Shown one piece after another: positions 4,974 to 15,571 of a DNA stretch of 64,000 bases (its first letter is position 1; each line of letters begins with the position of its first letter). The position numbers and the translations under genes are program-made. A model generated the notes under the pieces. It was not told where the DNA came from. It saw only the letters and a list, made by a program, of their open reading frames with translations, and did no database searches. Origin of the DNA: Gemmatimonadota bacterium (lineage in GTDB: Bacteria > Gemmatimonadota > Gemmatimonadetes > Palauibacterales > KS3-K002); contig CP070722.1 in assembly GCA_020350785.1 (NCBI GenBank), positions 3,684,241-3,748,240 on the forward strand. Reading direction: 5' to 3'.

Positions 4974-5972
4974 ATGCCGCTACCACCAATCATAGTATTC
5001 TACTCCTCCGCTGATACCGTAGCGCCGCAGGCATTGAGGAGCCACGTGGCGAATCGGGGTTGTGCTCTCGTTGAGGCGCGGAAACCCCAAGAGGTTTTGG
5101 CGCTTGTAAATCGGCGACATCCCTCGCTGGTGGTTCTTGATGGGGATGGCGACATTGACGAGGTCTGCCAGCTGATAGTCACGCTTCGAGCGGAGCCTTT
5201 CAGCGCCATAGTCCCTCTGATCGTTTGGTCGGAAAGAGAAGATATCGACGAGGTTCATCGGGTTCTGGAGTCTGGCGCCGATGATCTCCTCAGGATCGGA
5301 ATGGAGGAGCGCGAGAAGCTGCTGCGGTTGGATACAGTGGTGAGGCGGGCGGAGAGGGACGTCGGTGTGCACCCGACCACGCGCTTGCCGGGCACGGCGA
5401 TGATCGAGCGCGACATCGCTGCCCGGTTGCTGGCGGAGGAAGACTTCGCGGTCTGCTACGCGGATATCGACAACTTCAAGGAGTTCAACGATCGCTACGG
5501 CTATACCCACGGCGACCGGGTGATCTTCCTGATGTCGAAGATACTGAGGGACGTCGTCAGGGCCTTCTCCCCGGGGGGATTCATCGGCCATATTGGGGGT
5601 GACGACTTCATCTTCAATGTGCCGCTCGATATCTTTGAGACGTGTTGCCGTGAGATCATCTCGGTATTCGACACCTTGATACCGTTTCAGTACTCTGAAG
5701 AAGACCGCAAAGCTGGCTTCTTCTGGGGAAAGGACCGCCGTGGCCAACTTCATCGTATTCCGCTGATGACGTTGTCGATCGGAGTGGTGACGAACCATCA
5801 GAGGAGCTTCAGCCATACGGCGCAGGTCGGGGAACTGGCTACGGAGATGAAGGCGTATGCCAAGACGAAAGAGGGCTCCATATTCGTGGTCGACCGACGC
5901 CATGGCGAGCGAGCGATAAGGTCGGGAGAGGTGCTGAGACGGAAAACTGAGGTCATAAAGGAAGGGCCATGA
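4974..5972 (+). CDS. Receiver domain fused to GGDEF-type domain with variant signature GGDDF (diguanylate-cyclase-like response regulator)
   Basis: N-terminal REC-like fold (LVVLDGDGD). C-terminal GGDEF-domain motifs (YADIDNFKEFNDRYGYTHGD; GHIGGDDFIF). The fourth signature residue is D instead of E. Confidence 0.7.
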   Translation: MPLPPIIVFYSSADTVAPQALRSHVANRGCALVEARKPQEVLALVNRRHPSLVVLDGDGDIDEVCQLIVTLRAEPFSAIVPLIVWSEREDIDEVHRVLESGADDLLRIGMEEREKLLRLDTVVRRAERDVGVHPTTRLPGTAMIERDIAARLLAEEDFAVCYADIDNFKEFNDRYGYTHGDRVIFLMSKILRDVVRAFSPGGFIGHIGGDDFIFNVPLDIFETCCREIISVFDTLIPFQYSEEDRKAGFFWGKDRRGQLHRIPLMTLSIGVVTNHQRSFSHTAQVGELATEMKAYAKTKEGSIFVVDRRHGERAIRSGEVLRRKTEVIKEGP

Positions 5973-6553
5973 ACGTCGCCTGTCCTCAATGTAAGACGGT
6001 CTTTCGGGTAGATCCGCGCAAGGTACCGACCGAGGGAGTCAGGGCGCGTTGTTCCGTATGCGGCGGCGTGTTCGAGGTCGTTTCCGAAGCCAAACAGGCG
6101 GCGGCCGGGTCCGCAGTGATCGACGCGACGCCGGCCGCGGTGGCGGCCGAGGCTGCGGAGTCCGAGACCGGTGGGGCGGCGGTTGCAGACCGGCAGGAGC
6201 CCGCGCCTGAGCCCCCAGCGAGTCCGCCGCCCGCGCAGGCAGCGCCGCCACAGCGAGCACCGGTTCCCAGCGCTGGAGCCCCCAAGCCTGCCGCCCGGCT
6301 ATTTGGGCAGCCGGACCCGGAGGCGCGCGCGCGGCGCCTGGCGCGCGCGCTCATCTCCGACGTCGCGGCATACAACCCGGATCGTCAGGAGGCGGGTCTG
6401 CGAGAGGGTCGATTGAAAGAGCTGTTCCAGGTCGAGTTGAAGAAGTCTTGGCAGGAGTACGTAGACCAGGTCGGTATCGAGGTGGCCAGGAGCACGCCAT
6501 ATTTCCGGGACGCGCTCAACGAGATACTGGCCAAGGGGAAACGAGTCTTCTAG
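5969..6553 (+). CDS. MJ0042-type zinc-ribbon protein with Pro/Ala-rich linker and conserved C-terminal domain (function unknown)
   Basis: CPQC-x21-CSVC N-terminal finger. ~90 aa A/P-rich low-complexity tract. ATG 5969 overlaps the upstream stop (ATGA). AAGGAAGG SD-like sequence upstream. Confidence 0.6.
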   Translation: MNVACPQCKTVFRVDPRKVPTEGVRARCSVCGGVFEVVSEAKQAAAGSAVIDATPAAVAAEAAESETGGAAVADRQEPAPEPPASPPPAQAAPPQRAPVPSAGAPKPAARLFGQPDPEARARRLARALISDVAAYNPDRQEAGLREGRLKELFQVELKKSWQEYVDQVGIEVARSTPYFRDALNEILAKGKRVF

Positions 6554-6658
6554 GCAACCGGGTCGCGGAGGGGCCTTGAGGGCGGAGAGGCTGGGGTCAG
6601 AGAGGTTGACCGGTTGGGGGGGTTCGGGATATCTTTGCGTGGCCGAGTGGGGAGTCAG

Positions 6659-6691
6659 GGGCCGCCTGGTGGGGCGGCCTTATCGTTTATA
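6659..6691 (+). terminator. GC hairpin + U-rich tract in the zinc-ribbon/prfB intergenic region (terminator or leader structure)
   Basis: GGCCGCC-TGGTGG-GGCGGCC 7-bp stem followed by TTATCGTTTATAAT. A TATAAT hexamer lies at 6688-6693. Confidence 0.4.
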
Positions 6692-6747
6692 ATGATTAGA
6701 GTTAGGCGCTGTCGCGTCTGGTGTTCTTTCAAGGTGAGGTAGGGGCC

Positions 6748-7858
6748 ATGGCTGTGGCAACCGAGTTGACTGTGCTCAAGGACCTCCATCGGCGTGTGGA
6801 GGAGCTCAGGAGGTACCTTTGACATTGAACAGAAGAAGGCGCGGACCGACGATCTGGAAAGATTGACGGCTGGCCCGCGCTTTTGGGAAGACGCTGACCG
6901 GGCGCGAGCCGTCATGCAGGAGCTGAACGACCTGAAAGGCTGGCTCGAGCCGTGGGACGGGCTTCGGCGACGCTCTGCTGATCTGATGGAGCTGGGCGAG
7001 CTGATCGATGTCGAGGGCGGCGATGACATGGAGGAGGAGTTCCGCCGCGAGGTGGAGGCATTGGTCAGGGACGTGGACGACCTGGAGTTCAGGGCCATGC
7101 TGCGGGGCGCCGACGCGGAGCGCGATGCGCTGGTGACCATCCACCCGGGTGCTGGAGGCACCGACTCCCAGGACTGGGCCGAGCTGCTCATGCGCATGTA
7201 CACGCGCTGGGCGGAGTCACATGGATTTGACGCGGCCGTCCTGGATCTGGTGCCGGCCGAAGAGGCCGGGATCAAGTCGGTGACCCTGGAGATTCGAGGC
7301 CGCTTCGCCTACGGATACCTTCAGGCGGAGAAGGGGATTCACCGCCTCGTCCGGATTTCGCCGTTCGATCAGCAGGCTCGTCGCCATACTTCGTTCGCCT
7401 CGGTATTCGTCTACCCGGTGGTTGATGACGCCGTGGAGGTGGAGGTCAGCCCGGAGGACTTGCGTATCGATACCTACCGCGCCTCAGGCAAAGGCGGCCA
7501 ACACGTGAACAAGACGGACTCGGCGGTCCGAATCACCCATATTCCAACCGGCATCGTGGTCTCTTGCCAGCAGGAGCGCAGCCAACATCGCAACAAGAAC
7601 ACGGCGATGAAGATGCTGAGGGCGGCGCTCTATGAGAAAGCGATGGAGGAGCGGCGGCGCGAGCGCGAGAAGATCGACGCAACCAAGACCGAGATCGCTT
7701 GGGGCAACCAGATACGCTCGTATATCTTCCAGCCTTACACGCTGGTCAAGGACCATCGGACCGAAATCGAGAAGACGGATGTCCAGCGGGTGATGCAAGG
7801 CGAGATAGACGACTTCATTATCGGCTACCTCAAGGAATTCGGAAACCAGCTGGCATGA
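6748..7858 (+). CDS. prfB: Peptide chain release factor 2, expressed via programmed +1 ribosomal frameshift at codon 25 (CTT TGA C at 6817-6823)
   Basis: Frame-0 ATG 6748 encodes MAVATELTVLKDLHRRVEELRRYL, then in-frame TGA 6820-6822. AGGAGG lies 3 nt upstream of CTT. The +1 frame continues (ORF track 6794..7858) with RF2 motifs SPF and GGQ (GGQHVNKTDSAVR). Confidence 0.9.
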
Positions 7859-11458: not shown

Positions 11459-11961
11459 TGCTGTGCGATAACTGTGGGAAGAACGAGGCAGAGGTCCATC
11501 TGACGCAGATTGTGGACAACGAGATGACCACGGTCCATCTCTGTCCGAGTTGTGCGGCCGAGAAGGGACTGGATGCGGGTGGCGGCAAGAATCTGCCTCT
11601 CACCGACTTTCTTGCCCAGATGGGCCAAGCGGCGATCGCCGACGAAGAAGCCACGGGTGTGGAGCCGTGTTCATACTGCCACACGACGGTCGATGACTTC
11701 CGGCGAACGGGGCGCCTCGGTTGCCCGCATTGCTACTCGGTTTTCGAGTCCCAACTCCGTGCAATTTTGAGGCGCATTCACGGATCGACTTATCACCTGG
11801 GCAAGGTCTATGTGCCGCCGGCCAGTGAGGCGGCGGAGCGCAGCGCGCGGCTGTCCGGGCTGCGGCGCAAGCTGCAGCGCGCCGTGGAGGCGGAGGACTT
11901 CGAGCGGGCCGCGGTCATCCGCGACCAGATCCGCGAGCTGGAGACAACGGCGGACCGATGA
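11458..11961 (+). CDS. mcsA: McsA-like activator of protein-arginine kinase (four CxxC zinc-finger pairs + UVR motif)
   Basis: CDNC...CPSC and CSYC...CPHC pairs. C-terminal UvrB/UvrC-type motif LQRAVEAEDFERAAVIRDQIRELE. ATG shares 1 nt with lolD stop (TAATG). Stop overlaps mcsB start. Confidence 0.7.
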   Translation: MLCDNCGKNEAEVHLTQIVDNEMTTVHLCPSCAAEKGLDAGGGKNLPLTDFLAQMGQAAIADEEATGVEPCSYCHTTVDDFRRTGRLGCPHCYSVFESQLRAILRRIHGSTYHLGKVYVPPASEAAERSARLSGLRRKLQRAVEAEDFERAAVIRDQIRELETTADR

Positions 11962-13052
11962 GGAGACTAGACCTGGCTTCGACGCCGGACTTCGGCCTCA
12001 GTTGGCTCGACGCTACTGGCCCCGACAGCGATATCGTGCTCTCCACGCGAGTGCGCATCGCCCGCAATCTGCAGGGGTATCCTTTCTCGATCCGCGCCAA
12101 GCCAGCCGATCGAGCCGCCATTCTGGCGACGGTGCGGGAAGCGGTGGACCGCATGCCACCTCTAGCTGACGGCGTCATTCTGGAGCTGGATACGCTGGAG
12201 GCGCGAGGGCGCCAGCTCCTGCTGGAGCGGCACTTGGTCAGCAGGGAGTTGGCTGGCGCCGGGGGAGCAGACAGTCCCTCTTCTGCCGCGCTGGTGTCCT
12301 CATTGGCCGAGCCCGTCGGGTTGATGATAAACGAAGAGGATCACCTGCGCCTGCAAAGCCTGACGAGCGGCTTCGGCCCGCGGAAGACATGGCGGCTGGT
12401 GGATTCCCTCGACGAGGATCTGGGGAGCGCGCTTCCCTTCGCCTTCCACCACGAGTTTGGCCACCTGACGTCATGTCCTACGAATTGCGGAACAGGGTTG
12501 CGAGCGTCGGTGCTGATACACCTCCCCGGCTTGGTCCTGACGAAGGAAATCAACAAGGTGCTTCAGGGGATAACGCAGGTGGGCCTCACCTTCCGCGGCC
12601 TGTATGGGGAGGGCTCCGAGGTCATCGGAAACCTGTTTCAGGTATCGAACCAGACCACCCTGGGTAAGAGCGAGGAGGACCTGATCGACCACTTGCACAA
12701 GATCGTCGGTCAAGTCGTGGAGTATGAGCGTCAGGCTCGCTCGGTGCTGTTGCGTGACGCTCCCAACGTCATCGAGGATAAGGTTTGGCGGGCCTACGGG
12801 TTGCTGCGGCACGCGCGCTCCTTAGGGTTCGACGAGATGATGAACCTGCTCTCGGGCGTTCGCCTGGGGCTGTCGCTGAAACTTCTATTAGGGCCTAGTG
12901 TATTTGTGTTGAATCGGATAATGATATTTGCTCAGAATGCGCACCTGGAGGAGGCAAGCGCCGGAACGCTCGCCGTCGGGGAGCGTGACTTCCAGCGCGC
13001 CAGCCACGTACGGGCGGCTCTGGCGGAAGCGGAGCGAGCCGCAGACAGATAG
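11958..13052 (+). CDS. mcsB: Protein-arginine kinase McsB (ATP:guanido phosphotransferase family)
   Basis: Phosphagen-kinase active-site signature CPTNCGTGLRASVLIHLPGL. ~364 aa. ATGA overlap with mcsA. Confidence 0.85.
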   Translation: MRRLDLASTPDFGLSWLDATGPDSDIVLSTRVRIARNLQGYPFSIRAKPADRAAILATVREAVDRMPPLADGVILELDTLEARGRQLLLERHLVSRELAGAGGADSPSSAALVSSLAEPVGLMINEEDHLRLQSLTSGFGPRKTWRLVDSLDEDLGSALPFAFHHEFGHLTSCPTNCGTGLRASVLIHLPGLVLTKEINKVLQGITQVGLTFRGLYGEGSEVIGNLFQVSNQTTLGKSEEDLIDHLHKIVGQVVEYERQARSVLLRDAPNVIEDKVWRAYGLLRHARSLGFDEMMNLLSGVRLGLSLKLLLGPSVFVLNRIMIFAQNAHLEEASAGTLAVGERDFQRASHVRAALAEAERAADR

Positions 13053-13105
13053 AGCGAGGGGGACCCTGCGGGGGGAGAGCGGATCACGGGCGTGAAGAGG
13101 GTGTG

Positions 13106-15571
13106 ATGAATTACAATTTCACCGATCGGGTGCGGAAGGTCCTGGCGATGGCACGCGAGGAAGCCATTCGTCTGCAGCATGACTACGTCGGGACCGAACA
13201 TATCCTGCTGGGCTTGATCCGCGAAGGTGAAGGTGTCGCAGCGGCGGTACTGATGAACCTGAATGTCGACCTCGATCAGGTGCAGGAGCGGACCGAGGAG
13301 CAGGTTCGTAAAGGCAAGGCCGGTGCGACGATGGGCGAGCTCCCCTATACGTCGCGAGCGAAGAAGGTGTTGGAGTTCGCCGTGGCGGAAGCTCGGGAGC
13401 TGAGCCACAGCTACGTGGGCACCGAGCATTTGCTGTTGGGACTGCTGAGAGAAGAGAAGGGGGTTGCGGCGCAGGTCTTGGAGTCACTGGGGGTGACGCT
13501 GGAGGCGGCGCGTGACCAGACGCTGAAGCTCTTGGGTACCGATGTGCCGACGTCGGGCGCGAGCGCCAGCGCGGGGGCCAGTAAGGAGAAGAAGTCGAAG
13601 ACTCCGGCTCTGGATCATTTCTGCCGTGACCTGACCGAGTTGGCGCGGGGTGGCGAGCTCGATCCGACGATCGGTCGCGAGCAGGAGATCGAGCGTGTGA
13701 TGGAAATCCTGTCCCGGCGTAAGAAGAACAACCCGGTCTTGATCGGGGAGCCCGGGGTGGGGAAGACGGCGATCGTCGAGGGTTTAGCCCAGCTGATAGC
13801 GCGCGGTGAGGTCGCGGACAGTCTGAAGGGTCACCGGGTTCTGGCGCTGGACATGGCGGCCGTGATCGCGGGCACGAAGTATCGTGGTCAGTTCGAGGAG
13901 CGCCTCAAAGCGGTCATGAACGAGATTGCCCAGAACCGGGATGTAATACTGTTCATCGATGAGGTGCACACGCTTGTTGGCGCCGGGGCAGCGGAAGGGG
14001 CGATTGACGCGTCCAACATGCTGAAGCCTTCGCTGGCCCGTGGCGAGCTGCAGTGCATAGGCGCTTCGACGTTGAACGAATATCGCAAGTACATCGAGAA
14101 GGATGGAGCTCTCGAGCGCCGTTTTCAGACGGTCATGGTGGAACCGCCCACTGTGGATGAGACGATTGATATCCTTAGCGGGTTGAAGAAGCGCTACGAG
14201 GACCACCACAAGGTCTTGTTGCCGCAGGACACGCTGGTCAACGCGGCCAAGCTGTCCGAGCGGTACATCACCGACCGATATCTGCCGGACAAGGCCATCG
14301 ACGTGATCGATGAGGCGTGCGCCCGCGTCCATCTATCGACACAGGTGCCGCCGCCTGAGGTCGCCGACCTTCAGGAGGACCTGAAGCGAATCGGGCAGCT
14401 CAAGGACGAGGCCATACGGGACCAGGACTTCGAGCGAGCGGCCGAGCTTCGCGACAGGGAGCGTGAGCAGCAATCGGAGATCCGACGACGCCGCGAGGAA
14501 TGGGAGGAGGAGCGCCGCACCTTCCGGCCGACGATAACCGAGGACGATGTGGCGTTCATCGTTTCGCGCTGGACTGGGATTCCGGTGACGCGGCTGCAGG
14601 AGGGTGAGACCGATCGGTTGCTTCGGATGGAAGAGGAGTTGCACAGGCACGTCGTCGGCCAAGACGAGGCGATCACCGGCATCAGCCGTGCCATCCGGCG
14701 GAGCCGCGCGGGCCTCAAGGATCCGAATCGCCCCATCGGCTCGTTCATCTTCAGCGGCCCGACGGGCGTGGGCAAGACCGAGTTGGCGCGGGCGCTGGCG
14801 CGTTTTCTGTTCGCAGATGAGAACGCCCTGATCCGTGTCGACATGTCGGAGTACATGGAGAAGTTCTCGGTGAGCCGGTTGATCGGGGCTCCTCCCGGTT
14901 ACGTGGGTTACGAGGACAGCGGCGCCCTGACCAAATCGGTGCGCCATAAGCCTTACAGCGTGGTTCTGTTTGACGAGATCGAGAAAGCCCACCCGGATGT
15001 CTTCAATATTCTGCTGCAAATACTCGACGACGGCAGAATCACAGATAACTACGGTCGCGTTATCGATTTCAAGAACACGATCCTGATCATGACCTCGAAC
15101 GTTGGAGCTCGTGATATCGCCAAAGGCGGAGGTCTCGGATTTCACCAGCAGGACGACAAGGCCAGTTACGATGACATGGCTCGGCGCGTCAAAGAGGAGA
15201 TTCAGAGGGTCTTCAATCCGGAATTCTTGAACCGGCTCGATGATGTGATCGTGTTCCACCCGCTCTCCAAGGAGCACATCCGGCAGATCGTCGACGTGCT
15301 GATGCGAGATGTGCGTTCCAGATTGGAAGAGGAGTCACTGAAGCTACAGCTGACCGACCCTGCGGTGGCGTTCCTGGTGGAGCATGGATATGATGCGACC
15401 TACGGTGCCCGCCCGCTGCGGCGCGCGATTCAGCGCTACGTCGAGGATCCTCTGTCGGAGAAGATCCTGATGGCGGAGTTGACGCCGGGCGACATTATCG
15501 AGGTCGACGTATCAGCGGACGGAGAGAAGCTCGAGTTTCGAGTGCTCTCGTCCTCATCGTTCGCCACGTGA
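13106..15571 (+). CDS. clpC: ATP-dependent Clp protease ATP-binding subunit ClpC (two AAA+ modules, Clp-N repeats, UVR-containing M-domain)
   Basis: N-terminus [46 protein letters not shown] closely parallels Bacillus ClpC. Walker [10 protein letters not shown] and [12 protein letters not shown] motif in linker. GTG 13103 is an alternative start. Confidence 0.92.

Follow-up and report, generated by a model that had tools for sequence, protein, structure and literature searches.

Work on the polarity proteins RomR and RomX has been confined almost entirely to Myxococcus and Bdellovibrio. RomX folds into a bundle of three helices, in which helix 1 (R11, R14 and D19) binds MglA-GTP and is needed for both binding and exchange, and helix 3, with a Leu-Arg pair and W87, binds the receiver domain of RomR; this second interaction is of high affinity in Myxococcus, and the Arg of the pair is often replaced by Lys (bioRxiv 10.1101/2024.02.20.581209). 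Here we describe two overlapping genes, termed A and B, in a 64,000-nucleotide (nt) stretch of a metagenome-assembled genome of a Gemmatimonadota bacterium (assembly GCA_020350785.1, contig CP070722.1, positions 3,684,241 to 3,748,240; hereafter, the window). The C-terminal domain of protein B is a RomX domain, and protein A combines a receiver-like domain with a GGDEF-fold domain that has an invariant GGDDF signature. The pair is a natural variant in a different phylum, with RomX tied to a receiver-GGDEF enzyme.

There are precedents for ties between this polarity machinery and cyclic di-GMP. CdgA of Bdellovibrio belongs to the degenerate GGDEF proteins and has kept its inhibitory site (I-site). 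It interacts with RomR and is a potential receptor of cyclic di-GMP (c-di-GMP) (PMC11025332). In M. xanthus, c-di-GMP is made by DmxA during cytokinesis (PMC11255338). Zinc ribbons are also found in such systems: ZitP binds PopZ, the ribbon of GltJ binds the C-terminal helix of MglB, and the two serve as modules for protein-protein contacts in systems of polarity or motility (PMC11135422).

The RomX domain of protein B and the conserved gene pair

The RomX domain occupies amino acids (aa) 112-194 of protein B (6302..6550, + strand). The original prediction had described a conserved C-terminal domain of about 80 aa that could not be assigned. The domain is present and helical, with mean predicted local distance difference test (pLDDT) values of 89-96 in ten-residue blocks over aa 121-190 and an average of 77 for aa 191-194 in the AlphaFold2 (AF2) model, but it is not unassignable. 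We identify it as RomX because a phmmer search, the family profile and a Foldseek comparison agree. The phmmer search of B against PDB chains found M. xanthus RomX (8zna, E=3.8e-7), the profile of the B family matched the same chain at E=4.7e-23 and covered RomX residues 3-79, and 8zna was the best PDB match of the B model (template modelling (TM) score 0.74, root-mean-square deviation (rmsd) 2.3 Å, 32% identity). This assignment shifts the frame from generic c-di-GMP signaling to a polarity module of the MglA/RomR/RomX type.

The helix-1 residues R11, R14 and D19 of RomX correspond to R123, R126 and D131 of B, all invariant in the 30 aligned homologs from which the conservation of B was counted. 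The helix-3 Arg corresponds to K189, which is Lys or Arg in 29 of these 30, and the C-terminal residue F194 is invariant. When the RomX domain by itself was used in an exhaustive search, 1126 cluster representatives were recovered, of which 702 reach E<=1e-10. Nearly all of the 150 matches listed have it at the C-terminus or a few residues away, and most of 148 representatives end with an aliphatic residue and Phe (VF in 56, IF in 30, LF in 28). An Hpt-like phosphotransfer domain was considered for the helical part of B and rejected, as it has no invariant His.

Protein B starts with a zinc ribbon of the ZitP/GltJ (MJ0042) type (aa 1-37; 5969..6079, + strand), identified by profiles, conservation and Foldseek. 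It matches Zn_ribbon_4 with 50.7 bits against a cut-off of 30.3 (E=1.7e-13) and MJ0042_CXXC (TIGR02098) with 38.6 against 20.9 (E=6.4e-10). The residues C5, C8, C28 and C31 are invariant in the aligned homologs, and the same Cys positions are found in GltJ (PMC11135422). The ribbon superimposes on ZitP (2nb9) with a TM score of 0.66 and an rmsd of 1.3 Å; GltJ (7zok) is a weak match. The Ala/Pro-rich region between the ribbon and the RomX domain (aa 38-111; 6080..6301, + strand), noticed earlier as a spacer, is predicted to be disordered. Its ten-residue pLDDT means are 44-58 over aa 41-110, with values below 50 at aa 46-60, 62-67, 73-78 and 100-106. The region is rich in alignment gaps and its length differs strongly between species, so that across 65 loci the whole protein has between 146 and 524 aa.

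Gene A (4974..5972, + strand) encodes 332 aa and gene B (5969..6553, + strand) 194 aa; both were delineated by open reading frame (ORF), Pfam/NCBIfam profiles, AF2 models and Foldseek. The start and stop codons overlap in ATGA at 5969-5972, the ATG of B being at 5969-5971 and the TGA of A at 5970-5972. A Shine-Dalgarno-like sequence for B, AAGGAAGGG (5957..5965, + strand), can be read within the 3' end of gene A, 4-12 nt before the ATG. Protein homolog searches listed relatives with identities as low as 54% (A) and 44% (B), and both are therefore real genes. For A, the homolog set comprises 120 listed matches with 54-100% identity, and its column counts are from 108 aligned sequences.

The public record of A (P0001) has 308 aa and starts 24 codons downstream, being otherwise identical over its length. 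The 332-aa frame has the better start, because homologs conserve the N-terminus from M1 (M1 is invariant and P18 nearly so; 4974-5045). A protein identical to B is also on record (P0121). The present annotations are 'diguanylate cyclase' for A and 'zinc-ribbon domain-containing protein' for B, and the NCBIfam scan found no specific model for either. An antisense ORF of 307 aa (4980-5903, minus strand) lies wholly within gene A. It was rejected as a gene, being in all likelihood a shadow ORF that stems from the G+C richness of gene A; homology supports the gene on the + strand.

Stretches encoding relatives of A numbered at least 561 in a pattern scan that took one genome per species; the locus figures given here are for the best 80. 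Nearly all of these are labeled Gemmatimonadota (Gemmatimonadales and Longimicrobiales), and two have generic labels (L010, 'uncultured bacterium'; L070, 'Bacterium HR33'). Of the 80 loci, 77 have a homolog of B after A and on its strand; in the other three the contig stops just past A. Wherever the locus sequence reaches that far, prfB is the next gene after B. An intact ORF with both zinc ribbon and RomX is present in 65 loci, and two further ones look frameshifted. In these two (L045, 8135-10282; L068, 8983-10053) the zinc-ribbon and RomX parts of B are in different frames, which could be due to sequencing errors that shift the frame in the repetitive Pro/Ala linker, or to genuine disruption. 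The distance from the stop of A to the start of B is -4 nt in 16 of 67 related loci, most of them showing ATGA, and does not exceed 40 nt in most others. A and B are a conserved two-gene operon of Gemmatimonadota. Both the translational coupling by ATGA and the joint action of the two genes, which the original prediction had proposed to check by co-occurrence, agree with this conservation across the phylum.

Three proteins from other lineages, P0242 (968 aa), P0339 (597 aa) and P0380 (764 aa), carry a receiver and 3-5 tandem RomX repeats with acidic linkers between them, and P0242 and P0380 also start with a recognizable CxxC...CxxC zinc ribbon. The fusion of these modules in one chain in other lineages suggests that receiver, RomX and zinc ribbon act together. 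Foldseek matches with the RomX fold have been reported to be associated with receiver and zinc-finger domains (bioRxiv 10.1101/2024.02.20.581209); multi-RomX proteins like these three are not described in the RomX-related literature examined. It is highly improbable that A and B have unrelated functions and stay together only by inherited synteny. The block of era, a hypothetical gene, rnr, A, B, prfB and lysS is indeed syntenic across the phylum, but shared position as such is at odds with the recurrence of the 4-nt overlap and other short gaps, with the fusion of receiver and RomX elsewhere, and with the tight binding of RomX by the RomR receiver.

The receiver-like and GGDDF domains of protein A

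In the AF2 model of A, built with 31 homologs (mean pLDDT 87.4, predicted TM score 0.81), a (beta-alpha)5 receiver continues into an extended alpha5/linker helix at aa 112-128, after which comes a complete GGDEF fold. The best Foldseek matches are the receiver-GGDEF cyclases WspR, DgcR and PleD (3bre, 6zxb and 1w25), with just 15-22% identity to A. The receiver, GGDEF and MJ0042-type ribbon domains named in the original prediction are all upheld by Pfam/NCBIfam and fold, although the receiver profile Response_reg (PF00072) stays below its cut-off (22.8 bits against 30.2). The receiver fold is also supported by phmmer, which leads to the receiver domains of PhoB, KdpE and 3n53. A defense-system reading of A as Cas10 was rejected: neither the Pfam match (E=0.0046) nor that to PADLOC Cas10b (E=0.008) is significant, and the fold search leads to GGDEF and not to Cas10.

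The receiver-like domain and the alpha5/linker helix span aa 1-128 (4974..5357, + strand), as delimited by AF2 secondary structure, column counts and phmmer. The Asp of the phosphorylation site, D56, is retained in 100 of the 108 aligned homologs. The positions of the acidic pair are S/S or S/P, the Thr/Ser position holds V, S, A, L or T, and the Lys position is variable. The domain thus departs from a phosphorylatable receiver in profile score, acidic pair, Thr/Ser and Lys, and it looks like a pseudo-receiver that has lost the residues of phosphorylation chemistry. Other positions are under strong constraint: E114 is present in 107 and R118 in all 108 sequences, and in the motif GAD[E/D] at aa 101-104 G101 and D103 are invariant and A102 is found in 105. 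The architecture of RomR, a receiver followed by a Pro-rich disordered and a Glu-rich C-terminal region, is not that of A, where the receiver is followed by a GGDEF domain and disorder in the tail is limited to aa 312-332.

The GGDEF-fold domain spans aa 130-310 (5361..5903, + strand) and was delimited by conservation columns, BLASTP alignment to PleD and Foldseek. It matches GGDEF (PF00990) with 47.1 bits against a cut-off of 23.8 and TIGR00254 with 49 against 37.4, and the isolated GGDEF domains 3i5b, 5euh and 4iob with TM scores of 0.77-0.81. The codons of the signature G208-F212, within GHIGGDDFIF, are at 5595..5609 (+ strand). Instead of the canonical [G/A/S]G[D/E]E[F/Y] it reads GGDDF, and HIGGDD[F/Y] is found in 120 of 120 homologs listed. 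For comparison with PleD, the sequence and numbering of the latter were checked against the PDB and A was aligned to it by BLASTP. D164, K169, N172, D181, D210 and D211 of A correspond to D327, K332, N335, D344, E370 and E371 of PleD, and K297 corresponds to K442 by helix register. All these residues, together with D166, G208 and G209, are invariant in 108 of 108 sequences; F212 is present in 105 and replaced by Tyr in three. The RxxD I-site, which in other GGDEF domains is located five residues ahead of the signature, is missing: R359-x-x-D362 of PleD is represented by R/K196-x-x-A/S199 (Ala in 71 and Ser in 33 of 108). The Ser that marks Hypr domains at the position of PleD D344 is also absent, D181 being Asp throughout.

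The GGDDF site looks like a constrained and possibly modified active site free of feedback inhibition, and not like a decaying one, because the signature is kept in all homologs listed and the contact residues equivalent to those of PleD are invariant. Since RxxD is missing, a role as c-di-GMP receptor through this site is unlikely. Judging from the conserved residues, A is probably an active, feedback-insensitive cyclase, and the guanine contacts point to GTP as substrate.

The original prediction took the Glu-to-Asp replacement as a sign that cyclase activity could be altered or lost in favor of a receptor or scaffold role. In its strict form this would make A a scaffold, or a receptor of c-di-GMP or GTP like CdgA, PopA, PelD or the GTP-sensing GEDEF domain of CC3396, with B as its partner at a polar complex. 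The fourth-position Glu of GGDEF is the catalytic base that acts across the dimer, and Asp is shorter; the GGDDF-EAL protein PA3258 has no cyclase activity (PMC8835794). Several features of A itself weigh the same way. The Pfam alignment covers only profile positions 7-88 of 161. At the position of PleD R446 the model has G301/S302 by helix and loop register, so no equivalent of this Arg is present, and the DxLTGLxNRR turn is replaced by HPTTxLPGT, which removes the NRR wide-turn motif from the family. Without these two elements substrate binding may differ from that of canonical cyclases. In Bdellovibrio, moreover, the c-di-GMP receptor CdgA is at the pole with RomR (PMC11025332). We nevertheless consider a catalytically dead A unlikely, although its variant as a GTP sensor keeps some probability. 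The usual mode of c-di-GMP reception is unavailable to a protein without RxxD. In all 108 aligned family members, down to about 54% identity, the ligands of metal and guanine and the GGDD stretch do not vary, which sets them apart from the drifting sites of dead domains. The GGDDF domain of GSU1937 makes cyclic GMP-AMP (cGAMP) and c-di-GMP in vivo (PMC8835794). These three points also argue against the lost activity of the original prediction. It had named retained cyclase activity of GGDDF variants in this very clade as part of what would speak against it; the active GGDDF enzyme GSU1937 goes some way towards this, but it is from another clade. That sole active precedent is an engineered fusion from the Hypr clade with modest activity (PMC8835794).

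Two further motifs outside the canonical GGDEF signature are invariant or nearly so. KDRRG at aa 253-257 (5730-5744) lies in a beta-hairpin and is preceded by Gly (G-K-D-R-R-G), and VDRR at aa 306-309 (5889-5900) follows the last strand. These motifs may take the place of R446, which A lacks, or make up a binding site that is new.

A possible link to polarity GTPases

We propose, with moderate confidence, that A and B form a RomR/RomX-like module in which B docks on the pseudo-receiver of A and connects a cyclase that is probably active with MglA-GTP or polar landmarks. On the model of Myxococcus RomR/RomX, the contacts with the receiver of A would be made by helix 3 of the RomX domain and the C-terminal aromatic residue of B, and the receiver would serve as a docking module and not as a phosphorylation switch. 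Helix 1 of the RomX domain, with its R..R....D motif, would bind a small GTPase of the MglA type in its GTP-loaded state, and the zinc ribbon would contact a further partner, either MglB, as in GltJ, or a polar hub, as in ZitP, with the disordered linker as a spacer. The location, activity or dimerization of the cyclase could then be set by B, coupling a polarity GTPase to local c-di-GMP synthesis. In such a module the parts would be re-partitioned and a cyclase output added: in Myxococcus RomR holds the receiver, the disordered region and a partner-binding end and RomX the helical bundle, while here receiver and cyclase are in A and ribbon, disordered region and helical bundle in B.

A number of observations, in addition to the departures of the active site described above, weigh against this proposal. 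W87 of RomX has no exact aligned counterpart in B, and that F194 is its analog is a guess. The invariant E114 and R118 of A could serve dimerization of the stalk instead of binding of B. In sequence, the receiver of A does not specifically resemble those of the fusion proteins P0242, P0339 and P0380, and no RomR chain is among its PDB matches in phmmer. Genes for MglA and MglB did not turn up in the window or across the 80 related loci (about 1 Mb; tblastn with an M. xanthus MglA sequence as query), and there is no Roadblock domain among ten small ORFs of the window. The role of RomRX is itself disputed, being described as an exchange factor (bioRxiv 10.1101/2024.02.20.581209) or as an MglA-GTP effector (PMC13408092); binding alone, and not exchange activity, is therefore proposed for B.

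The absence of mglA and mglB near the pair and its purely housekeeping neighborhood (era, rnr, prfB, lysS) would also fit a pair that works independently of MglA. The RomX fold would then be a receiver-binding bundle, and B an activator, inhibitor or localizer of the cyclase of A that replaces the phosphorylation input; the ribbon would bind some other partner, and no GTPase would be involved. Zinc-ribbon domains of this type have varied ligands outside Myxococcales (PMC11135422), and the helix-1 motif, as a signature of the whole family, could serve another partner. We regard this alternative as possible but rather doubtful. The three residues experimentally required for RomX to interact with MglA-GTP are invariant in B, and the closest structurally characterized ribbons, ZitP and GltJ, both belong to polarity systems. 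Group-1 MglA and MglB are encoded by the type species of the phylum, Gemmatimonas aurantiaca, in which one of the two group-1 MglA genes, GAU_1115, belongs to an mglB-mglA operon and the other, GAU_1409, is flanked by PATAN genes (PMC4316618).

The RomR/RomX-like module can also be put in a stronger form, which we advance only tentatively. A-B would be a core module of the whole phylum, with a RomX adaptor that reads MglA-GTP and, by docking on a non-phosphorylatable receiver, switches or positions a GGDDF cyclase without product inhibition. This would make the family the first natural clade with GGDDF as a working catalytic motif. If the docking as such is true, it would provide a direct path from a small-GTPase polarity switch to c-di-GMP production. 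To our knowledge, a relay from a GTPase to c-di-GMP has not been described in any bacterium. Docking would also mean that pseudo-receivers serve as docking sites for RomX-fold adaptors, and would offer a large natural family for testing GGDDF as a working catalytic motif. Two genes with generic annotations thereby gain a testable role. The families to which the parts of A-B belong are all known; what is new is how they are combined, and that this combination is conserved throughout the phylum. Neither a RomX protein coupled to a receiver-GGDEF enzyme nor a GGDDF clade of Gemmatimonadota is mentioned in the RomX preprint, which does not contain the words 'GGDEF', 'diguanylate' or 'Gemmatimon', or was found in a full-text search for GGDDF.

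Genomic surroundings and comparison with known systems

The gene order around the pair is era, a gene for a 346-aa hypothetical protein, rnr, A, B, prfB, lysS, a lolE-like gene and then mcsB-like, clpC, bamA and lpxD genes; the neighbors of A-B are all housekeeping genes. The ORF for the hypothetical protein between era and rnr (1666-2706) has no Pfam or PADLOC match, is syntenic, and its product is 31-70% identical across Gemmatimonadota loci. Further downstream (11958-15571), the mcsB-like ATP:guanido phosphotransferase gene is directly upstream of clpC, which is the protein-arginine-kinase/Clp arrangement, with bamA and lpxD next.

The spacer downstream of B is 194 nt long (6554-6747). The original prediction had noted it as a long intergenic leader of about 195 nt to the right of the pair; the stretch exists, but it lies downstream of both genes and is hence not their leader. 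It contains a terminator-like hairpin (6658-6681; a 10-pair stem with seven G-C pairs) with a T-rich tail (6658..6691 in all, + strand) that probably ends the A-B transcript, and a TATAAT at 6688-6693 ahead of prfB. No Rfam match was found in the spacer, the only match in the scanned region being a chance miRNA near the start of gene A. A riboswitch or leader was therefore rejected, and the spacer is better read as a terminator followed by the promoter and 5' untranslated region of prfB. The prfB gene (6748-7858) has the classic programmed +1 frameshift, with ATG at 6748, AGGAGG at 6808-6813, a 3-nt spacer and CTT TGA C at 6817-6823; the ORF listing therefore shows it only as a GTG-started fragment (6794..7858).

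Among the described systems, M. xanthus RomR/RomX (8zna) shares with A-B a receiver protein and a RomX-bundle protein, the helix-1 residues and the helix-3 basic residue, and a Pro-rich disordered segment within the system. In contrast to RomR, which has a Pro-rich and Glu-rich tail, A carries a GGDEF-type domain. The disordered linker and an extra zinc ribbon are on B, and RomX is a stand-alone protein of about 90 aa whereas B has 146-524 aa. The A-B genes are overlapping or adjacent in a housekeeping block and belong to Gemmatimonadota, not Myxococcota, and MglA binding by B is a prediction from analogy.

The receiver-GGDEF cyclases WspR, PleD and DgcR have the same domain order and fold as A, and their metal Asp, Lys, guanine-binding Asn/Asp and GG(D/E) are kept. 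A differs from them in having GGDDF in place of GG[DE]EF, no RxxD, no equivalent of R446, the HPTTxLPGT turn and the added KDRRG and VDRR motifs, and in a receiver without the residues of the phosphorylation pocket. The Hypr-GGDEF cGAMP synthase GSU1937 of Geobacter sulfurreducens resembles A in its GGDDF, in the lack of an EAL or HD-GYP domain, and in that many homologs keep the variant (PMC8835794). It has the Hypr Ser at the position of PleD D344 (Ser348 in the paper) and a transmembrane N-terminus, whereas A has D181 and a receiver, and the two are of different clades (PMC8835794).

ZitP of Caulobacter and GltJ of Myxococcus share with B the MJ0042-type ribbon, Cys 5, 8, 28 and 31, and a flexible linker after it. 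They are membrane proteins with other C-terminal modules (DUF3426 in one, GYF and a transmembrane segment in the other), whereas B appears soluble and ends in RomX. The RomR-CdgA hub of Bdellovibrio likewise ties a GGDEF-family protein to the RomR/MglA polarity machinery, a tie that is a predicted one for A. Unlike CdgA, A has no I-site and retains a constrained catalytic site, and its link to the polarity machinery would run via a RomX-domain protein.

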